From positions 1,184,001 to 1,248,000 of the forward strand of contig CP169074.1 of the NCBI GenBank assembly GCA_041891055.1: DNA of 64,000 bases, given 5' to 3'. Under the pieces are notes generated by a model. That model was given only the letters and a program-made list of their open reading frames with translations, ran no database searches and was not told where the DNA came from. The DNA comes from Halorutilales archaeon Cl-col2-1. Lineage in GTDB: Archaea; Halobacteriota; Halobacteria; Halobacteriales; Afararchaeaceae. The position numbers were made by a program, and so were the translations under genes. Below, one piece after another: positions 8,092-48,055 of this stretch; positions within the stretch are counted from its first letter, which is position 1, and every line of letters begins with the position of its first letter.

Positions 8092-8484
8092 CTAGTACTC
8101 ACAGAGCTCTAAGAGGACTCCGTGGGTGTCCCCGGGATGGAGGAAAGCTACCTGTTTACCGCCAGCACCGGGACGCGGCTCGTCGTCTATGAGACGTATC
8201 CCGAGGTCTTCGAGACGTTCTAACTCGTCTTCTATCGAGTCGACCTTTACTGCGACGTGCTGTATTCCCTCGCCTCTCTTCTCTAAGTGTCGTGCGACCG
8301 CACCGTCGTCGTCGAGGGGTTCGAGTAGCTCGAACTCGCCCTCGCCGGCTTCGAGGAAGATGACACGCATGCCTCCGAACTCCTCCTCGTAGTCGAACTC
8401 CATGCCGATGACATCGCGGTAGGTCTTGAGTGCCTCGTCGGCGTCCTCGACCGCGATCCCTACGTGGTCGAACTCGACCGACAT
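8092..8484 (-). CDS. mce: Methylmalonyl-CoA epimerase
   Basis: DHVGIAV, ELLEP, GEGIQHVA, FLHPGDTHGVLLEL; coupled to the mutase gene. Confidence 0.92.
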   Translation of the reverse strand: MSVEFDHVGIAVEDADEALKTYRDVIGMEFDYEEEFGGMRVIFLEAGEGEFELLEPLDDDGAVARHLEKRGEGIQHVAVKVDSIEDELERLEDLGIRLIDDEPRPGAGGKQVAFLHPGDTHGVLLELCEY

Positions 8485-10163
8485 CAGTAATCAGCCCCCA
8501 CTCTGTACTCCCCGAATACGTCTCTGAGTGCGTCGGCTATCTCCCCGACCGTGGCGTACGCCTTAACCGCGTCTATTATGTAAGGCATCAGGTTGTCGTC
8601 TCCCTCGGCGGCGTCCTTGAGTGCTTCGAGTGCCTCGTCTACTGCGTCGTCGTCCCTGTCGTCGCGGAGCTCTTCAACCTTCTGTATCTGTCTCTCCTGC
8701 TGTTTCTCGTCGACTTCATGTATGTCTTCCTCGGGCTCCTCGTCGACTGTGAACTCGTTGACTCCGACGATTATACGTTCGTTCTCCTCTATCTCCTGCT
8801 GACGCTCGTAGGCGGCGTCCTGTATCTCGTCCTGTATCCAGCCTTCCTCTATGCACGAGAGGACACCTCCGCGTTCGTCTATCTCGTCGAAGTAGTCGTA
8901 GACGCGTTCCTCTATCTCGTCAGTGAGACTCTCCACGTAGTACGATCCCGCGAGGGGGTCTATCGTGTCGGCTACACCGCTCTCGTGTCCGAGTATCTGC
9001 TGTGTCCTCAGTGCGGTACGTACCGACTCCTCTGTCGGGAGCGAGAGAGCTTCGTCCTTTCCGTTCGTGTGTAGAGACTGCGTGCCTCCTAAGACTGCGG
9101 CGAGAGCCTGGTACCCGACACGGACGATGTTGTTCTCTATCTGCTGTGCCGTGAGTGTCGAACCCGCAGTCTGTGTGTGGAAACGCAGCATCTTGCTCTT
9201 CGGGTTCTCGGCTCCGAACTCCTCCTCCATGACATCAGCCCAGATACGTCTCGCCGCGCGGAACTTGGCGACCTCCTCGAATATCTCGTTGTGAGCGTTG
9301 AAGAAGAAAGAGAGACGCGGAGCGAACTCGTCGACGTCAAGTCCTGCCTCGACGGCTTCCTCGACGTACTTCTTACCGTCTGCGAGAGTGAAGGCGAGCT
9401 CCTGTACGGCGGTCGCGCCCGCCTCACGTATGTGGTATCCCGAGATAGATATAGTGTTGAAGTTGGGAACCTCGTCAGAACAGAACTCGAATATGTCGGT
9501 GACGATCCTCATCGAGGGCTCGGGGGGATAGACGTAGAGGTTACGTGCGATATACTCCTTGAGTATGTCGTTCTGTATAGTGCCTCTGAGCTCCTCGCGG
9601 TCGACCCCCTGTTTGTCCCCGACCGCGATGTACATAGCGAGCATTATCGACGCGGGGGCATTTATGGTCATGCTCGTCGAGACCTCGTCTAAGGGAATCC
9701 CGTCAAAGAGAGTCTCGAAGTCGGCGAGAGAGTCTATCGCGACTCCCGCCTTTCCGACCTCTCCCTGTGACAGGGGATGGTCGGAGTCACGTCCCATCTG
9801 GCTCGGGAGGTCGAAGGCGACCGAGAGACCCGTCTGACCCTGATCTAAGAGGTAATGGAACCTCTCGTTGGTCTCCTCGGCGGTAGCGAATCCCGAGTAC
9901 TGACGCATAGTCCAGAGACGTCCGCGGTGCATCGTCGAGTATATGCCGCGGGTGTAGGGCTCCTCACCCGGGAAGCCGAGATCCTCGTCGTAGTCGAGAT
10001 CCGAGACATCGTCGGGGGTGTATAGCTGGTCGACCTCTATTCCCGAGTCGGTCGTGAACTCGTCCTCACGCTCCCCGAACCTGTCGAGCGTGGGACCCAA
10101 TGTCTCTTCCTCCCACTCCTGTCTAGACTCTCTTATTTCCTCTAGATCATCCTCGTCGAACAT
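8484..10163 (-). CDS. Methylmalonyl-CoA mutase, substrate-binding (large) subunit
   Basis: [36 protein letters not shown]; no B12-binding domain. Confidence 0.93.
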
Positions 10164-28088: not shown

Positions 28089-28424
28089 TCAGACCTCTAT
28101 GTATCTACTCAGCTTACCGACTGCTTTCTCGACAGTAGCCGCCCTAAGTTCGCCCTGTTGGCTGTCGAGGTCACGTTTCTTGACCGTAGTCACGTACCAG
28201 GGTGAGATATACGAGTCCTTGTCGGAGCCTCCTCGAACCCAGTCAGTGTCCTGTACTTCGATTCCTTCGGAATGTGTCTGGGAAGTCATAGCGAGCACGA
28301 TACATTCGTCCTTCGAGAAAGGATGTCTTTCATCGCTTATTATCAGCCAGGGTCGGTAGGCAGGAGACGACTTATGTGGTGCAGGACCCCACCAGACTTC
28401 ACCATATCCGTAGTCGTTAGACAT
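28089..28424 (-). CDS. PemK/MazF-like toxin
   Basis: GEVWW...RPWLIIS...IVLAMTS PemK pattern. Confidence 0.75.
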   Translation of the reverse strand: MSNDYGYGEVWWGPAPHKSSPAYRPWLIISDERHPFSKDECIVLAMTSQTHSEGIEVQDTDWVRGGSDKDSYISPWYVTTVKKRDLDSQQGELRAATVEKAVGKLSRYIEV

Positions 28425-28784
28425 CTATGGGTTCTCCGTCTCAGACTCGACGCCGCGACCCCATTCCTCGGGGTCTTCGGCTCCGAGACGCTGTGTCACA
28501 GCACGTGACACCGACATCGAAGTCAGTGTCTTGTCGAGATCCTCGACATCACCTACTGCCCAGTACTCTCCGCGGTGACGGACGAGATCCCTCTCCTCCA
28601 GACGCGACAGGACGACGCCGACACTTCCCCTTGCGACACCGGTTTCTTCGTGTATCTCCTTCGGAGTGTATGCCTTATCGGGGTTCGAGGCTAAGAAAGA
28701 AAGTATCTCCTCGGAGTTAGTCTTCCCCTCGGAACGTAGCTCAGTCTCCGAGTCCTCCTCGAAGCTCTCTATGTCGATGGGCAT
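28425..28784 (-). CDS. Winged-helix protein, putative cognate antitoxin
   Basis: AYTPKEIHEETGVARGSVGVVLSRLEERDLVRHRGEYW; abuts the toxin gene. Confidence 0.75.
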   Translation of the reverse strand: MPIDIESFEEDSETELRSEGKTNSEEILSFLASNPDKAYTPKEIHEETGVARGSVGVVLSRLEERDLVRHRGEYWAVGDVEDLDKTLTSMSVSRAVTQRLGAEDPEEWGRGVESETENP

Positions 28785-28830
28785 ACTACTCGTACGCAAC
28801 CCCGTGTAATAGATGTAATGGCTATAAGTT

Positions 28831-29781
28831 TCAGTCGAGAGCGTCGGCGGCTAGACGTATCGCAGACTCGGGGTCGGAACCGAGGGGCGATCCCACGACT
28901 ACGGTGTCTACGCCGACCTCGAAGAGTTCGTCGACCTGCTTTCGGCAGTCGTCAGGTGTGCCATGGACTGAGAACGAGTCGAGCATGTTAGGTGTCACGA
29001 GAGAGAACGCCTCCGAGAACTCGCCCTCCTCTATCTTCTCGCCTATCTCGTCGGCGATCTCCTTGTCTATGTCGTGTCTGTCGAGTACAGGCGGGGGCGA
29101 CGCCGACGCAACGAAAGAGACGGGCTGACGTGCTGCCTCCGCTGCCTTCTCTGGGTCTTCGTCTACGGAGAACGAGGTGTAGGCGACTATCTCAGCATCG
29201 GTCTCGCCTATCTGTTCGAGAGACCACTCGAAGTCGTCGGGGTGTGACGCGTTTATGAGTATTCCGTCGCCGTGATCCGCCGCCATCCTGAGCATGTTGG
29301 GACCCTGAGCACCTATGTAGACGGGGATATCACGTGAGTCGTAGTTGAGCTTCGCTCCGTTTGCGAGACCGTCTACGTCCATACTCTCGCCACGGAAGAG
29401 ACCCCGCGAGAGCTTCACGGCGTCGAGTACTTCGTATAAGGGAGACTCCCTCTCGACGTCGAGCGCCTTGAGAGTGTTTGGGTCTCCAGGTCCTAAGCCG
29501 AAACGCACCCTTCCGTCGCTCATCTCGTCGAGTGTCGCCATCGCGCTCGCAGTCCACGCTGGATGTGCGTAGTAGGGGTTGGTGATCCCCGTTCCTATTC
29601 CAATCTCGTCTGTCGCACGCGCTATAGCCGTGAGAGCCACGATGGGGTTCCTGTTGTTGTAATGGTCGGTGATCCAGATTCCCTCGAAGCCCTCCTCCTC
29701 TGCGACCTCGGAGAGTTCGACGAGTTCGTCGACGGGTTCCTCGGCTACGAGCTCTATTTCGAGACTGTCCATACGTGTCAT
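28831..29781 (-). CDS. F420-dependent LLM-family oxidoreductase (methylene-H4MPT reductase-like)
   Basis: WITDHYNNR, GITNPY, GLGPGD, GAQGP, INASHP, VVGSPLG. Confidence 0.88.
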   Translation of the reverse strand: MTRMDSLEIELVAEEPVDELVELSEVAEEEGFEGIWITDHYNNRNPIVALTAIARATDEIGIGTGITNPYYAHPAWTASAMATLDEMSDGRVRFGLGPGDPNTLKALDVERESPLYEVLDAVKLSRGLFRGESMDVDGLANGAKLNYDSRDIPVYIGAQGPNMLRMAADHGDGILINASHPDDFEWSLEQIGETDAEIVAYTSFSVDEDPEKAAEAARQPVSFVASASPPPVLDRHDIDKEIADEIGEKIEEGEFSEAFSLVTPNMLDSFSVHGTPDDCRKQVDELFEVGVDTVVVGSPLGSDPESAIRLAADALD

Positions 29782-29874
29782 ACGTCCGAGACGCGTTTTG
29801 TCCTTTCGGTGTTAATCGATACCTTAATACTCGGGAACCAATACGTCAATAATGACAGATTCGGTGGTAATTGA

Positions 29875-32745
29875 ATGTCAACAATAAGACAAGCTAACGA
29901 GGAGTACGAGAACTTCGTGGTCGAGTACTTCGCCCACGACGACGGAACAGTCGCAGAGATAACAGTTTCAAACCCGCCCGTCAACGCCCTCAACTCGACG
30001 GCTCTCAACGAGCTTAACGGGATAGTCGACGAGATAGAGGAGGAAGCCGACGCAGCGGTCATCACGGGTGAAGGAACCACGGCTTTCGTCGCGGGGGCTG
30101 ACATAGAGGAGTTCCTCGAACAGGACGAAGCCGACGACGTCGAGGCGATGTGCGAGACCGCACACACAGCATTCGACAAGATAGAGAGCCTCGACATCCC
30201 CGTAGTCTCGGCTGTCAACGGAGTCGCGCTCGGAGGAGGAAACGAGCTCCAGATGTCGACCCATTACACGGTCGTCGACGGAGACGCCGAGTTCGGACAG
30301 CCCGAAATCAACCTGTATATAATACCCGGATACGGAGGCACACAGCGTCTCCCGAGACTCGCCTACGACGAGAACGGCGACGAGGGATACAAGCAGGCTG
30401 CCTACATGATCCTCAACGGCAGGAACTACTCCGCCGATGAGGCTCTCGAGATGGGATTCGTCGACGAGGTAGTCGACAAGGAAGCCGCCGTCAACAGGGC
30501 ACACGACCTCGCCTACGGCTACATCACGGGAGAAGACGACACTCTCGAAGACGCACACTCCCAGAGACAGTCCGACCGTGAGCGGTGGGAGTCGGGAGAC
30601 GACTATCCCGACCTCTCCGACGACGCCGAGTACAGCCGTATACTCACACAGTCGGAGGACGTCGGACGCGCCCCCGCAGTCGAAGCCGCAGTCGAGGCTA
30701 TCGAAGAGGGATTCGAGAACGGAATATCCGACGGACTAGAAGCAGAGGGTGAGCTCTTCGGAGAGGTCGTCGTCGACGATGACCTCGGTAAGACGGGTAT
30801 ACAGGACTTCCTCGACGGGAGTTCGAACCCGCTTCCCCTCAAGCCCCACGACCCGCCGCTCGTCCCTGACGAGGAGACGAAGGAGGAGCTAATAGAGGAC
30901 GGCGTCGTACTTCCGCCCGACTCGCCCTTCTACCCCGGAGCGACCCCCGTCCCCGACTACCAGCTCGCGTGGGCACTCACGGGAGACGAAGAGACAGGAG
31001 AGCCCGACCACGGTGAGCCCGTCGAAGACGGAGCCGAGAAGGAGATCGTCGTGCCTGTCGAGGATCCGGGTCCCAACGACGCCCTTCTCTACATGCTGAC
31101 GTCTGAGGTCAATTACAACGACGTCTGGGCTATAACGGGAATACCCGTCTCGACCTACAAGAACTACGACAAGGACTACCACATAACCGGATCGGGAGGT
31201 CTCGCTCTCGTCGCCGAGACGGGACAGGCTCTCAAGGAAGAGGGACGTATAGAGGTAGGCGACCTCGTCCACGTCTATGCGGGACAGTTCGACGTCCTCT
31301 CGCCCAACGTCGGACGCGACCCGATGGACGCGAGCTACGAGATACAGGGATACCAGACCCCTGACGGGTCGCACCAGCAGTTCATGGTCGCACAGGGTCC
31401 CCAGCTCTTCAAGCCTCCTCAGAACCTCGACCTCACCGAGGCGGGAAGCTACATACTCACGATGGGTACGATCTACCGTGCCCTCTTCACCAACCTCGAC
31501 GTCGAGCCCGACAAGAACATATTCATAGAGGGGTCGTCGACGGGTACGGGAAGAGACGCAGTCATGATGGCTTCGTCACGTGGACTCAACGTCACGGGAC
31601 TTGTCTCGAGCGACGATCGTGCCGAGAGAGCCAAGGACGCTGGCGCTCACGCCGCGATCAACAGGAAGCAGGAGGCTCTCGAAGACGCGATGCATATGGT
31701 TCCGAACGACCCCGACGAGTGGGACGACTGGGTCGAAGCGGGTCAGCCTCTCCTCGACGAGTACCGTGAGAAGAACGACGGCGACCTCGCCGACTACGTC
31801 ATATCACACGCCGGAGCGCACGCCTTCTCGCGCTCGTACCAGCTCCTCGACGACGGCGGACGTCTCGCCTTCTACGGAGCCTCGACGGGATACGAGATGG
31901 CGTTCATCGGAAAGGGCGGCGAGGCGACGCCCGAGGAGATGTACAGACGTGCCGACCTCCGCGCCGGAGAGGGCGTCATGGTCTGGTACGGTACGCCCGA
32001 GGACGTCGAGGGCGTAGAGGACGAAGTCGGAGAGGAAGCCATAGAGGCGGCTATAGACAACGACGCACGTGTGGCTGTCGTCACAGAGACCGACGAACAG
32101 AAGGAGTACGTCGAGGACAGCTACGATGTCGAGGGCGTCGTATCACTCGACGAGATAGACGAACAGAGTGACAGGTTTGAGTGGCTCGACACGATGCCCC
32201 AGCTTCCGGGTCCGAGCAACCCCGACGAGCTTTCGGCGGCTATCGGCGACTACATGAACAAGATGTTCAAGCCGATAGGTATCGCGGTGGGTCAGATACT
32301 CGAAACACCCGACAACCCGCGTGGAAACCCCGAGGTCATATTCGAGAGAGCGGGACAGAACACACTCTCCGCCTCGACTATGATGTGTTCGTCGTACATG
32401 GGTAAGGTCGTCTTCTCCGAGGACATGGAAGGAGACCGTTACTCGTTCTACGCGCCTCAGGTCTGGATGCGTCAGAGACGTATCTACATGCCGTCGACCG
32501 AGATATTCGGTACGCACATGAAGAACCACTACGAGGTCAAGCAGATGAACTCCGCAATAGAGCAGGGCATCTTCGACATACCCGAGACACATCTCACGCC
32601 TTGGGACGAGGCTCCCGTCGCTCACCAGGAGATGTGGGACAACGTCCACGAGGAAGGCTCGTACGTCATAAACCACGCTCTCCCTGAGGACGGTCTTGAG
32701 ACGAAGGAAGAGCTTCTCGAGACGTGGGAAGAAGAGTGGAGCTGA
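29875..32745 (+). CDS. Enoyl-CoA hydratase + enoyl-CoA reductase fusion resembling the dehydratase-reductase part of propionyl-CoA synthase
   Basis: N-terminal crotonase (NPPVNALN, AFVAGADI, GGGNEL, QPEINL, PGYGGTQRLPRL); C-terminal MDR with SEVNYNDVWAITGIPVS, TGSGG, YAPQVWMRQRRI. Confidence 0.88.
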   Translation: MSTIRQANEEYENFVVEYFAHDDGTVAEITVSNPPVNALNSTALNELNGIVDEIEEEADAAVITGEGTTAFVAGADIEEFLEQDEADDVEAMCETAHTAFDKIESLDIPVVSAVNGVALGGGNELQMSTHYTVVDGDAEFGQPEINLYIIPGYGGTQRLPRLAYDENGDEGYKQAAYMILNGRNYSADEALEMGFVDEVVDKEAAVNRAHDLAYGYITGEDDTLEDAHSQRQSDRERWESGDDYPDLSDDAEYSRILTQSEDVGRAPAVEAAVEAIEEGFENGISDGLEAEGELFGEVVVDDDLGKTGIQDFLDGSSNPLPLKPHDPPLVPDEETKEELIEDGVVLPPDSPFYPGATPVPDYQLAWALTGDEETGEPDHGEPVEDGAEKEIVVPVEDPGPNDALLYMLTSEVNYNDVWAITGIPVSTYKNYDKDYHITGSGGLALVAETGQALKEEGRIEVGDLVHVYAGQFDVLSPNVGRDPMDASYEIQGYQTPDGSHQQFMVAQGPQLFKPPQNLDLTEAGSYILTMGTIYRALFTNLDVEPDKNIFIEGSSTGTGRDAVMMASSRGLNVTGLVSSDDRAERAKDAGAHAAINRKQEALEDAMHMVPNDPDEWDDWVEAGQPLLDEYREKNDGDLADYVISHAGAHAFSRSYQLLDDGGRLAFYGASTGYEMAFIGKGGEATPEEMYRRADLRAGEGVMVWYGTPEDVEGVEDEVGEEAIEAAIDNDARVAVVTETDEQKEYVEDSYDVEGVVSLDEIDEQSDRFEWLDTMPQLPGPSNPDELSAAIGDYMNKMFKPIGIAVGQILETPDNPRGNPEVIFERAGQNTLSASTMMCSSYMGKVVFSEDMEGDRYSFYAPQVWMRQRRIYMPSTEIFGTHMKNHYEVKQMNSAIEQGIFDIPETHLTPWDEAPVAHQEMWDNVHEEGSYVINHALPEDGLETKEELLETWEEEWS

Positions 32746-45676: not shown

Positions 45677-46174
45677 TCATATCTGTACCATCCTATCACT
45701 CGGACAGCTTTCGAACGACGGATCCGAGACGACACCTGTACATCCTGACGGATCGCCGTTCTGGTAAAACTTTACACGGACTCCATCGGCTCCTGGATTT
45801 ACTTCGGCTGTGACGGTGTACTTAATCCCGTAGTTGTCCCTACAGCTTTCAGTGCCAATAATGTTAGTTGTGTTGACGTTTACAGAGTAGACGCCGTCGC
45901 CTGTTTTCGATATGCCAGATACCAATGCCGCTTCCGAACCGTTTTTCCAGACGATATCAGTCTTGTTAGCCATAACTGTGTGATTCGGTGTCCCGGAGAG
46001 GTAACTCGGATACGACAGAGACAGATTCGACTCACAACCGGCGTCGATTTGTGTGACATCGACCGAAGATACCGACGCTGTCTCATCACTGCCCGTACCC
46101 AGACTTAATCCGACGCCGACGGCTACGATCAGTCCTATGCTTAGAACGCCGAGAAGCTTTCGGCTAATATTCAT
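45677..46174 (-). CDS. Membrane-anchored exported protein with four Cys
   Basis: N-terminal hydrophobic helix, beta-rich Ser/Thr-rich body. Confidence 0.65.
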   Translation of the reverse strand: MNISRKLLGVLSIGLIVAVGVGLSLGTGSDETASVSSVDVTQIDAGCESNLSLSYPSYLSGTPNHTVMANKTDIVWKNGSEAALVSGISKTGDGVYSVNVNTTNIIGTESCRDNYGIKYTVTAEVNPGADGVRVKFYQNGDPSGCTGVVSDPSFESCPSDRMVQI

Positions 46175-46235
46175 CGTCTGGTTTACGTAGATTCATGCTT
46201 TACTGTCTTCACTCATTGAGCAGTAGCTTCCACCA

Positions 46236-46370
46236 TTACTGCTTAATGATAGGGCTAGAAGTCTCGGCAGAACCTACCGTTACCATCGGCGTAGCTAATG
46301 CACCCGACGCTACTCCCGTTTTTCTCAGAAAGCTCCTCCGTCCCATACTATTCTCGTTTTCTTCGAACAT
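46236..46370 (-). pseudogene. Truncated TAT-precursor gene (44 aa; not in the ORF track)
   Basis: Hand translation MFEENENSMGRRSFLRKTGVASGALATPMVTVGSAETSSPIIKQ*; directly downstream of the duplicated promoter. Confidence 0.65.
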
Positions 46371-46380
46371 ACAGTTCCAC

Positions 46381-46526
46381 AGTAACACTCCGTTTATTTA
46401 TAATTTCGGTCTAGAATATGTTTCAAATTATTAGATATTTCTACAGTATGAAATCTTCTCACTATATGAAATGATTCCGCTCAACGAAGCTGTTTGACTG
46501 AGTGAAAGCTGTCTCAAAATGTGAAA
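46381..46526 (-). repeat. 146-bp direct repeat copy 1 (promoter region)
   Basis: About 92% identical by hand alignment to 47910-48055; contains TTATAAA on the minus strand. Confidence 0.92.
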
Positions 46527-46715
46527 TAGATATTCATACTGAAGAAAAGTCATAAACTCTTCGGATTTATGAGTATATGTAAGTCTTGAACCACACTCAT
46601 CCCAAAATCGCTGATTTTGAGGGCTCGTAAATCTCCAATTTGTAAAGATCAACCAAAGATTAATGAATAGATAAGGTCTCAGATCTTTCAGTAGCAACGG
46701 TGAATGTATCTCCCT

Positions 46716-47063
46716 CTATGAAACATTTTCTAGTGAAAGTTTGGATAAAATCCCCGCAACACCAACTCCAACAATAAATGATACTCCCATAGAAACTGAG
46801 TGATTTACCATCTGACTCGGTATAAAAGCTGAAAAAATCATTAGTAAGAATTCGATCACACGCCTAGTACGTGACTTATGAAAGTCAAAATACCCATATA
46901 ATAATATTATAAGATAGCCATATAAAATCCCAAAAGCCAAACCTAAAATAGAAATACCAACCTCTTCAACAAAAAGCAGAATTAGTCCGGTTATAAGTGT
47001 AATTAAACCTACATATAGACCCAACCGTTGTGTGAATTCTTCAGTTAGTTTCATTACACACAA
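46716..47063 (-). CDS. 4-TM small membrane protein, immunity-like
   Basis: Very hydrophobic 115 aa, 6 nt downstream of the TAT precursor, AT-rich. Confidence 0.7.
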   Translation of the reverse strand: MCVMKLTEEFTQRLGLYVGLITLITGLILLFVEEVGISILGLAFGILYGYLIILLYGYFDFHKSRTRRVIEFLLMIFSAFIPSQMVNHSVSMGVSFIVGVGVAGILSKLSLENVS

Positions 47064-47069
47064 TAGAGA

Positions 47070-47906
47070 CTATAAGACAATAAAATCGGGATCCTTTCCT
47101 GCATGATCATTTACTGATGCGACAGGCATAGTTTCCGAAGCATCAGCCAAGTATTTATTCGATATTACTGTACTGTACATAGGTGTGTTAGTTATTGGGG
47201 TATCAAAGTCCTTTGCTCCGACAGTAAAATCCTTATCCGTGTATAAGGATAGTACTGTTCCAGCTATAATTGAGATTACAGTTCCTATTCCCCCACCTAA
47301 GAAATAACCAATCAATCCCGCGAGAGTATTTTTTGATAAAGTATCGATAGACTGTGTTAGTTCAATAGCATCTCCTGCGTAGAAATGGTTGTAATCTGAA
47401 TAATATGCACATGATCCTATGGTTTTGGAAAAACTCTCATGTCTTCTAACCAGTGTTGAGTAGTCATAGCTGGCTAACTGGAGATGAGGACTGGGGTTAA
47501 AATCCATGAGGGTAAAATCGTTTTGCCAGCTTTTGCTACTGGCGGGATTGGGTTCATTGTTATCTTTTCTCTTATTACTCTGTCCCTCTCTTCTAGGATT
47601 GCCATTTTTAGATCCCAGCTTAACATGATCTATTCTGCCTTTTCTCTGCCCTTTCTTGAATTCCTTAAACAAATGAAACACATCATTTACTCCCACGCGG
47701 GCTATACGTACTGATTGGTTATCTACTAAAATCTTCCTTTTAACATCCATCCCTTCATCGCTACTTGCCCGACTCATCTTCTTCCTATTTGGGAGACCTG
47801 TCAAAGGGACTGTCGCAATACCTAAGCTCTTCAGAAACTCACGTCTGTTTGAGCCGATTTTATCTTTTTCCTTGTCTTCTTTCTCTGCCATGTCTGATAC
47901 CACCAT
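47070..47906 (-). CDS. TAT-exported protein, halocin-like precursor candidate
   Basis: NRREFLK TAT motif, Lys/Arg-rich pro-region, C-terminal Gly-rich hydrophobic segment LAGLIGYFLGGGIGTVISIIAGTVLSL. Confidence 0.7.
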   Translation of the reverse strand: MVVSDMAEKEDKEKDKIGSNRREFLKSLGIATVPLTGLPNRKKMSRASSDEGMDVKRKILVDNQSVRIARVGVNDVFHLFKEFKKGQRKGRIDHVKLGSKNGNPRREGQSNKRKDNNEPNPASSKSWQNDFTLMDFNPSPHLQLASYDYSTLVRRHESFSKTIGSCAYYSDYNHFYAGDAIELTQSIDTLSKNTLAGLIGYFLGGGIGTVISIIAGTVLSLYTDKDFTVGAKDFDTPITNTPMYSTVISNKYLADASETMPVASVNDHAGKDPDFIVL

Positions 47907-47909
47907 AAT

Positions 47910-48055
47910 AGTAATACTCCGTTTATTTATAATTTCGGTCTAGAATATGTTTCAAATTATTAGGTATTTTCACAGAATGAAACTCTTCCACCATATGAAA
48001 TGATTCCGCTCAACGAAGCTGTTTGACTGAGTGAAAGCTGTCTCAAAATGTGAAA
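47910..48055 (-). repeat. 146-bp direct repeat copy 2 (promoter region)
   Basis: Matches 46381-46526; fills the whole intergenic space upstream of the precursor gene. Confidence 0.92.

Follow-up and report, generated by a model that had tools for sequence, protein, structure and literature searches.

A conserved, ligase-less homologue of propionyl-CoA synthase in Halobacteria

The textbook example of the confinement of a toxic intermediate is propionyl-CoA synthase (PCS), whose three fused domains form a chamber around acrylyl-CoA. What, then, is to be made of a gene that encodes only the dehydratase and the reductase, and not the ligase? Such a gene lies at 29875..32745 (+ strand) of a 64,000-nucleotide stretch of the genome of Halorutilales archaeon Cl-col2-1 (GenBank assembly GCA_041891055.1, contig CP169074.1, positions 1,184,001 to 1,248,000; the whole stretch is hereafter referred to as the window). 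The open reading frame (ORF) has an ATG start and zero internal stops, and its 956-residue product had been read in a preliminary description, made from the sequence alone, as a crotonase domain joined by a linker to a reductase of the MDR family. This reading is borne out, with every quoted motif found where it had been placed, and the ORF is a real, conserved PCS derivative that lacks the ligase; we refer to it below as the didomain.

The relationship to PCS runs through both domains. In a phmmer comparison with the sequences of the PDB, the top match was 6eqo_A (1850 residues), to which residues 8-952 of the query align colinearly, as residues 887-1840 of the chain, in a single alignment (E 2.9e-290); the resemblance is far outside what chance would give, and the preliminary description was right to assign the protein, linker included, to the two C-terminal domains of PCS. 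Entry 6EQO is the PCS (Pcs) of Erythrobacter sp. NAP1, an attribution taken from PMC10266731 and PMC11599936. A comparison with crotonyl-CoA carboxylase/reductase (CCR), also proposed at the outset, came out in favour of PCS: the second-best PDB match, the CCR 4gi2, is far behind (E 3.3e-47), and the CCRs of the PDB overall match the reductase with E-values of 1e-47 to 1e-19. Moreover, 4gi2 aligns in two blocks (query residues 359-621 and 817-950), and the ~195 residues between them (622-816; 31738..32322, + strand, as delimited by the phmmer alignment blocks) match 6eqo, have no counterpart in the CCR, and are thus common to PCS only. A second PCS-type insert that is retained in the ORF and absent from CCRs is the 7-residue MPSTEIF. 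The top NCBIfam model is that for CCR (TIGR01751), but its 199.9 bits, gathered over two stretches, fail the cut-off of 378.55. Against full-length PCS proteins, BLASTP identity is 43-53%, and in the alignment the catalytic and cofactor motifs are kept in all of the three didomains, three haloarchaeal full-length PCS and three bacterial full-length PCS compared. Set against five CCR and five crotonase outgroups, the two domains are each placed within the PCS ingroup. With respect to the definition of trifunctional PCS (KEGG K14469), the fused N-terminal ligase is missing, whereas the colinear crotonase with two glutamates, the CCR-like reductase with its linker, and the clustering with PCS are all present.

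The crotonase (enoyl-CoA hydratase) core comprises residues 24-212 (29944..30510, + strand); it matches Pfam ECH_1 (E 1.8e-39), the ORF scoring 136 bits against the gathering cut-off of 27 for PF00378 (enoyl-CoA hydratase/isomerase superfamily), and it aligns with the dehydratase domain of PCS. The crotonase fold carries two catalytic glutamates with a spacing of 20 residues, and both are seen here in the alignment, their roles being assigned from knowledge of the fold: Glu124 lies within GGGNEL, which starts at residue 120 (codon 30244..30246, + strand), and Glu144 lies within QPEINL, which starts at residue 142 (codon 30304..30306, + strand). The C-terminal helical part of the dehydratase and a PCS-type interdomain linker follow (residues 213-372; 30511..30990, + strand), a stretch colinear with its counterpart in 6eqo and in the PCS of haloarchaea and bacteria; the linker includes GKTGIQDF (residues 305-312) and PFYPGATPVPDYQ, and GKTGIQDF...PFYPG is conserved between the ORF and PCS. 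The remainder (residues 373-956; 30991..32742, + strand) is a CCR-like MDR enoyl-CoA reductase domain, as judged from TIGR01751, CCR structures and Pfam ADH_zinc_N, the last of these (the MDR nucleotide-binding domain) matching residues 559-672 with an E-value of 1.1e-16. Its motifs SEVNYNDVW, GSHQQF and FYAPQVWMRQRRI start at residues 410, 498 and 858, respectively. Within the first, Asp416 (codon 31120..31122, + strand) aligns with Asp1302 of 6eqo, at a position that is Gly or Asn in both aligned CCRs; the glycine-rich dinucleotide-binding motif of the reductase, GSSTGTG (residues 553-559; 31531..31551, + strand), aligns with GASGGLG and GGSGGIG of CCRs.

That the ligase is not fused, and that the ORF begins at the dehydratase boundary, had likewise been proposed, and both points stand. 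The alignment of residues 8-952 with 887-1840 of 6eqo places the start of the ORF at the ligase/dehydratase boundary of PCS (6eqo residue ~880); only 93 bp precede it before a divergent gene begins, so there is no space for a fused ligase, and no Pfam match to an AMP-binding domain was found in the ORF. The protein thus shares with the Erythrobacter enzyme its colinear dehydratase, linker and reductase, the glutamate pair, the glycine-rich motif and the PCS inserts, but it lacks the ~880-residue ligase domain, which resembles acetyl-CoA synthetase (ACS), and is strongly acidic. Pcs is described in PMC10266731 as an enclosed three-domain 'multicatalytic compartment'; given that the ligase domain is absent, such a compartment cannot form in the same way in the didomain.

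A survey of 401 Halobacteria genomes (match threshold E <= 1e-60) found a PCS-family match in 18: the full-length enzyme in 11 (frames of 1798-1859 residues and 51-54% identity, one of them ending at a contig edge after 1560 residues), the 956-residue didomain in two (the host and a genome of the same genus, G025), and a reductase-only form in six (frames of 612-772 residues, 65-71% identical to query residues ~321-954), with the full-length and reductase-only forms occurring together in one genome. Named haloarchaeal records of the full-length enzyme come from Natronorubrum, Natribaculum and Natronococcus, and those of the reductase-only form from Haloferax marinum, Haladaptatus and Natribaculum luteum. 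In the protein database, a 98%-identical match carries the name 'Halobacteria archaeon', and there is a second didomain lineage (P0003-P0006; 921-961 residues) with 64% identity and an unchanged architecture, for which one member of a 90% cluster is named Natronomonas sp. Among 1.84 billion cluster representatives scanned, 124 proteins, generic crotonases included, matched at E <= 1e-30. The didomain and reductase-only forms turned up in Halobacteria only (8 of the 401 genomes) and among hypersaline metagenome proteins, whereas full-length PCS ranges over Chloroflexota, Pseudomonadota, Acidobacteriota-like and Gemmatimonadota-named proteins.

How did the didomain come to be without a ligase? 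The trees suggest that it most likely arose by ligase loss rather than as an early stage of PCS. From 139 candidates passing a coverage filter, 74 rows were used; the trees were all built by 'quick' searches, and branch support is by SH-aLRT alone. In the reductase tree (query residues 345-951), for which five CCRs taken from plasmid records served as the root, the 36 haloarchaeal rows are monophyletic (SH-aLRT 99) and comprise two groups, one of 11 full-length rows (100) and the other of 25 didomain or reductase-only rows (100, with a stem length of 0.74); the reductase-only homologues, annotated 'zinc-binding dehydrogenase' (Haloferax marinum, Haladaptatus spp.), thus share a clade with the didomain, to which they are 65-74% identical across the reductase and the linker end, but are without the dehydratase domain. 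In the dehydratase tree (55 rows, five crotonase outgroups), a clade with SH-aLRT 80 unites the five didomains and the 11 haloarchaeal full-length rows, and in trees from the concatenated alignment (57 rows, with 23 rows and one stand-alone hydratase row left out), support for the haloarchaeal clade is 88 under C20 and 100 under LG+G4. The sister group in all trees is, therefore, full-length PCS of the type seen in Natrialbales (Natronorubrum tibetense P0019, and the Natribaculum and Natronococcus plasmid records), which is 54-56% identical to the didomain in the dehydratase core and reductase but has frames of 1798-1859 residues that include the ligase; by parsimony, this placement argues for ligase loss. 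The two groups also share the signature NELQ at the first catalytic glutamate, where three of three aligned bacterial PCS have [ML]EFA. Additionally, haloarchaeal full-length PCS is 55% identical across ~1850 residues to two proteins from Chloroflexota metagenome-assembled genomes, which indicates that the three-domain layout is shared between domains of life. Full-length PCS would, then, have entered Halobacteria, the ligase domain would have been lost in one lineage to give the didomain, and related lineages would have lost the dehydratase too, taking on unrelated ligase and hydratase genes.

The preliminary description had seen in the protein a possible intermediate in PCS evolution. Taken as an ancestral, pre-fusion stage, it would mean that the dehydratase and reductase were the first to fuse, the ligase joining them only on the branch from which all full-length PCS descend. 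This is disfavoured by the sister-group placement, although approximately unbiased (AU) tests leave it standing: monophyly of full-length PCS to the exclusion of the didomain/reductase-only clade is kept both for the reductase domain under C20 (delta lnL 7.07, p 0.227) and for the concatenated alignment under LG+G4 (delta lnL 11.66, p 0.083). Moreover, the deepest PCS branches form an unresolved polytomy, and the position of the didomain/reductase-only clade is weakened by the length of its stem (0.68-0.74 changes per site). Set against these points, each of the four free trees puts the clade beside haloarchaeal full-length PCS, and the restriction of the shortened forms to Halobacteria contrasts with the spread of the full-length enzyme over several bacterial phyla. 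We consider an ancestral stage unlikely, albeit not negligibly so, and hold it reasonably probable that the ORF encodes a stand-alone dehydratase-reductase descended from three-domain PCS.

A bacterial didomain would also bear on this question, and one candidate remains: P0188 (969 residues), which is non-halophilic, is 40% identical to the window protein and 52% identical to the full-length bacterial PCS P0117. Its greater proximity to the latter fits, and suggests, an independent loss of the ligase, and does not favour an ancestral didomain. The other bacterial 'didomains' were set aside: P0084 and P0094 are probably truncated gene calls, as their 90%-identity clusters include members of 1827 and 1830 residues, and many further bacterial matches of 900-1070 residues start within a domain or at a conserved Met of the ligase C-terminus.

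Several other arrangements of PCS domains were seen in passing. In P0190 (939 residues) the order is permuted, the reductase preceding the dehydratase, and PCS-type reductase domains are embedded in proteins of 1316-6910 residues (P0191, of 6910 residues; P0192, P0204 and P0211). On five metagenome contigs (L061, L062, L063, L067 and L068), PCS is split within the dehydratase into two genes, the first encoding the ligase and the N-terminal half of the dehydratase (to residue 1020 of haloarchaeal PCS) and the second the C-terminal half and the reductase (from residue 1026; 790-804 residues); the cluster of P0185, which is of this split type, is named Chloroherpetonaceae bacterium. On four of the five contigs, the halves are separated by variable genes (restriction-modification fragments, PIN, cytochrome P460) spanning 1.1-2.8 kb; contig L062 begins inside the first half. 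A group II intron was considered as the cause of the split, but there was no Rfam match. On L061 (14622-14817) and L063 (19266-19461), the split genes are followed at a distance of ~7 kb by a cobalamin riboswitch (106.5 bits).

The likely function, judging from homology, is the conversion of 3-hydroxypropionyl-CoA to propionyl-CoA via acrylyl-CoA. Glu124 and Glu144 of the crotonase domain would dehydrate 3-hydroxypropionyl-CoA to acrylyl-CoA, which the CCR-like domain, with its GSSTGTG motif and Asp416, would then reduce with NADPH. The same two reactions are carried out by unfused proteins elsewhere, namely, by the 3-hydroxypropionyl-CoA dehydratase and acryloyl-CoA reductase of the archaeal 3-hydroxypropionate/4-hydroxybutyrate (HP/HB) cycle, and by bacterial AcuI/YhdH. 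The HP/HB-cycle dehydratase (PDB code: 5zai) matches the dehydratase domain of the window protein (E 2.5e-24); nevertheless, neither the HP/HB nor the AcuI/YhdH enzymes are specifically related to it; the window protein is a PCS-type fusion, and its reductase is of the CCR type and is neither AcuI-type nor Sulfolobales-type.

Propionyl-CoA could be carried on to succinyl-CoA by a single carboxyltransferase, a likely epimerase and a mutase. Two of these probable partners, both unlinked to the ORF, are encoded in the window: a methylmalonyl-CoA mutase large subunit (8484..10163, - strand; Pfam MM_CoA_mutase, E 5.3e-237) and, adjoining it, a glyoxalase-fold protein that is likely to be methylmalonyl-CoA epimerase (8092..8484, - strand; Pfam Glyoxalase_4, E 3.6e-22). 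They lie ~20 kb from the didomain, on the opposite strand and amid unrelated genes. It is plausible that 3-hydroxypropionate (3-HP) or acrylate is converted to propionyl-CoA and so feeds this mutase and epimerase. Outside the window, the host genome encodes the single carboxyltransferase and a second mutase large subunit (572 residues), which directly follows a gene resembling those for tartronate-semialdehyde and 3-hydroxyisobutyrate dehydrogenases (C1:149864-152527; L072 8865-11528). Compared with the genes beside haloarchaeal full-length PCS, this second mutase is 71% identical, its adjacent dehydrogenase 50% and the iron-dependent alcohol dehydrogenase (Fe-ADH) of the host 74%. TnpB/Cas12f-like ORFs (OrfB_IS605 / TNB domain) are found near both loci, at L072 13729-15042 for the dehydrogenase-mutase pair and at L073 9576-10805 for the Fe-ADH gene.

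The 3-hydroxypropionyl-CoA or acrylyl-CoA would have to be supplied by an unlinked enzyme. The preliminary description had pointed to a stand-alone PCS-type ligase and a malonyl-CoA reductase as genes to be sought elsewhere in the genome; no candidate for either was found in the host. A genome search with the full-length PCS of Natronorubrum tibetense (P0019) gave, for the ligase region, a sole match to an ORF of 662-664 residues (33-36% identity), which is a canonical AcsA (NCBIfam TIGR02188, 867 bits against a cut-off of 725), and neither this search nor inspection of the AMP-binding genes revealed a PCS-type stand-alone ligase. There are exactly five AMP-binding genes, encoding AcsA, two FadD-like proteins, a MenE that adjoins MenB, and a 547-residue ACS/MbcS-like enzyme that scores under all NCBIfam cut-offs; there is also one ADP-forming acyl-CoA synthetase (730 residues), and no CoA-transferase was found in the genome with PF02515, PF01144 or PF13336. 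The five AMP-forming ligases and the ADP-forming synthetase are, therefore, the candidates for substrate supply: exogenous 3-HP or acrylate might be activated by a promiscuous ligase, or else acrylyl-CoA and 3-hydroxypropionyl-CoA might arise as side products.

Further support for the reductase assignment comes from the relatives. We examined six reductase-only loci (five by Pfam, one by the annotation of its record), and an ADP-forming acyl-CoA ligase adjoins the reductase gene in five of them, the remaining one having an AMP-forming ligase instead; the nearest solved relatives of the ADP-forming ligase are the 4-hydroxybutyrate- and 3-hydroxypropionate-CoA ligases [ADP-forming]. Four of the six loci also have a stand-alone hydratase gene beside that of the reductase, its product sharing 29-34% identity with the PCS dehydratase. 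These separate ligase, hydratase and reductase genes would rebuild the three reactions of PCS, which supports a role as acrylyl-CoA reductase for the whole clade. The possibility that the hydratases are the lost dehydratase domain itself was rejected, as they are 29-34% identical to the window protein and group with the outgroup. The other neighbours include a BCCT transporter (three of six loci), an IclR regulator (four of six) and a Rieske/SRPBCC protein (two of six), and these clusters may serve the catabolism of osmolytes, either betaine-like or resembling dimethylsulfoniopropionate (DMSP), or of 3-HP/acrylate, via acrylyl-CoA. EamA and an FAD oxidoreductase are also encoded in the reductase-only clusters (L026, L028, L030, L031 and L037; Haloferax marinum, Natribaculum luteum and Haladaptatus sp. 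YSMS36).

The two full-length haloarchaeal loci examined are of a different kind. In both L033 (6839-18988) and L034 (6980-16623), PCS adjoins an Fe-ADH and a SauS-like CoA-acylating aldehyde dehydrogenase (592 bits, cut-off 600), and the additional genes are a methylmalonyl-CoA mutase in L033 and a 3-hydroxyisobutyrate-dehydrogenase-like gene in L034. It is chemically plausible that the SauS-like enzyme is a candidate malonyl-CoA reductase, and the gene sets resemble a segment from malonyl-CoA through 3-HP and propionyl-CoA to succinyl-CoA. No SauS-like gene was found in the host genome (the best match has 24% identity). For Haloferax mediterranei, a 3-hydroxypropionate route to propionyl-CoA has been proposed, with the genes unnamed in the available excerpt of PMC7137286.

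A number of observations weigh against our functional assignment for the didomain, or at least against extending to it the evidence from its relatives. Homologues of the BCCT and Rieske proteins of the reductase-only clusters were not found in the host genome, and the ADP-forming ligase of the host is only 33% identical to the cluster ligases. No substrate-supplying gene is linked to the didomain in the window, where the neighbours are instead an LLM oxidoreductase and a peptidase with a repressor; similarly, on the contig of a second didomain (L050), no ligase is nearby and the neighbours are DnaJ, HisD and UbiA. Finally, identity among the didomains is 51-54% for the dehydratase as compared with 71% for the reductase, and with this faster divergence the substrate could have drifted.

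It is in this light that a PCS fold with another substrate has to be weighed, be it 3-hydroxybutyryl-/crotonyl-CoA or methacrylyl-CoA, or indeed a CCR-like reductive carboxylase. CCR acts on a C4 substrate, which it carboxylates, and the reductase of the didomain belongs to the same MDR fold family, as the TIGR01751 match attests; the fast divergence of the dehydratase and the absence of an operon context that would fix the substrate also leave room for such a specificity. However, the TIGR01751 score is far under its cut-off, and CCR has neither a fused dehydratase nor the 195-residue insert. This insert is kept in the didomain together with all of the other PCS-specific features, namely, MPSTEIF and NYND (as opposed to Gly or Asn in the two CCRs). 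Moreover, the reductase is 55-56% identical to that of haloarchaeal full-length PCS, and the sister reductase-only genes adjoin relatives of 3-HP/4-HB-CoA ligases. We therefore regard a different substrate as rather improbable, and retain 3-hydroxypropionyl-CoA as the likely one.

The gene is a resident of its genome, under purifying selection, and is neither a recent import nor a relic. The host genome (2.06 Mb, 99.5% complete) has a mean GC of 0.566 +/- 0.039 and a mean GC3 of 0.674 +/- 0.081 over 760 long acidic ORFs, and the values for the window gene, 0.596 and 0.746, lie at the 88th and 93rd percentiles of this set, respectively; the net acidic fraction of the protein (0.156) is at the 93rd percentile. 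In G025, the locus is syntenic with 97% DNA identity, and the orthologue is 98% identical, with 17 of 956 residues differing (dS 0.101, dN 0.008, dN/dS 0.08) and none of the 215 residues of the dehydratase core changed. The host-like composition, the synteny and the low dN/dS together establish residency, and the view that the protein is acid-adapted and not recently imported, voiced in the preliminary description, holds. That the gene is a decaying PCS remnant with no present function, as might be supposed from the loss of its ligase domain and the further loss of the dehydratase in its relatives, is highly improbable in view of this constraint, the intact 956-residue frame and catalytic motifs, and the retention of the architecture in a lineage at 64% identity.

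The 93-bp intergenic region (29782..29874), shared with the divergent upstream gene, contains a putative TATA-like TTAATA (29824-29829) and a putative GGTGGT (29863-29868) 7 nt ahead of the ATG, both by consensus resemblance only. The divergent gene (28831-29781, - strand) scores above the cut-off for the F420-type 'methylene-H4MPT reductase' LLM model, and just past it (28089-28799, - strand) lie a MarR-type winged-helix ORF (124 residues) and then a PemK/MazF-like toxin ORF (111 residues). Downstream, the neighbour is a convergent M48/BlaR-like peptidase gene with a BlaI-type repressor. Further away, positions 46001-48000 have a GC content of 0.389, as compared with ~0.55 in the rest of the window, and may be an inserted element.

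In the Creative Commons-licensed full text of PMC and bioRxiv, subscription papers and supplements lying outside this search, we found no paper on a ligase-less PCS homologue or on haloarchaeal PCS. Existing database labels for such proteins are 'enoyl-CoA hydratase-related' or K14469; in the available parts of PMC12806544 and PMC13384644, K14469 serves merely as a marker, and the available part of PMC11237513 deals with fusion and fission in the archaeal HP/HB cycle and does not cover PCS. A K14469 or 'PCS' match in a haloarchaeon should be read with caution, as it implies neither the full enzyme nor a 3-hydroxypropionate cycle; indeed, the warning in the preliminary description that the gene is no evidence of autotrophy is upheld.

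We propose, tentatively, that Halobacteria hold a natural disassembly series of PCS, from the three-domain enzyme through the ligase-less didomain to the reductase-only form with its recruited ADP-forming ligase and hydratase near BCCT. The BCCT-linked clusters may represent an undescribed haloarchaeal route by which a propionate osmolyte of the sulfonium or quaternary-ammonium type, similar to DMSP or to beta-alanine betaine, is degraded via acrylyl-CoA, and the dehydratase-reductase modules, being salt-adapted, would be of use for pathway engineering. If the didomain works without an attached ligase, then either the sequestration of acrylyl-CoA is dispensable there, or a new, non-covalent assembly takes its place. 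A conserved natural PCS that is minus one wall of its chamber, with sisters that are minus two, offers a ready-made test of the need for the compartment in vivo, and the series also shows how a missing part of PCS is replaced.

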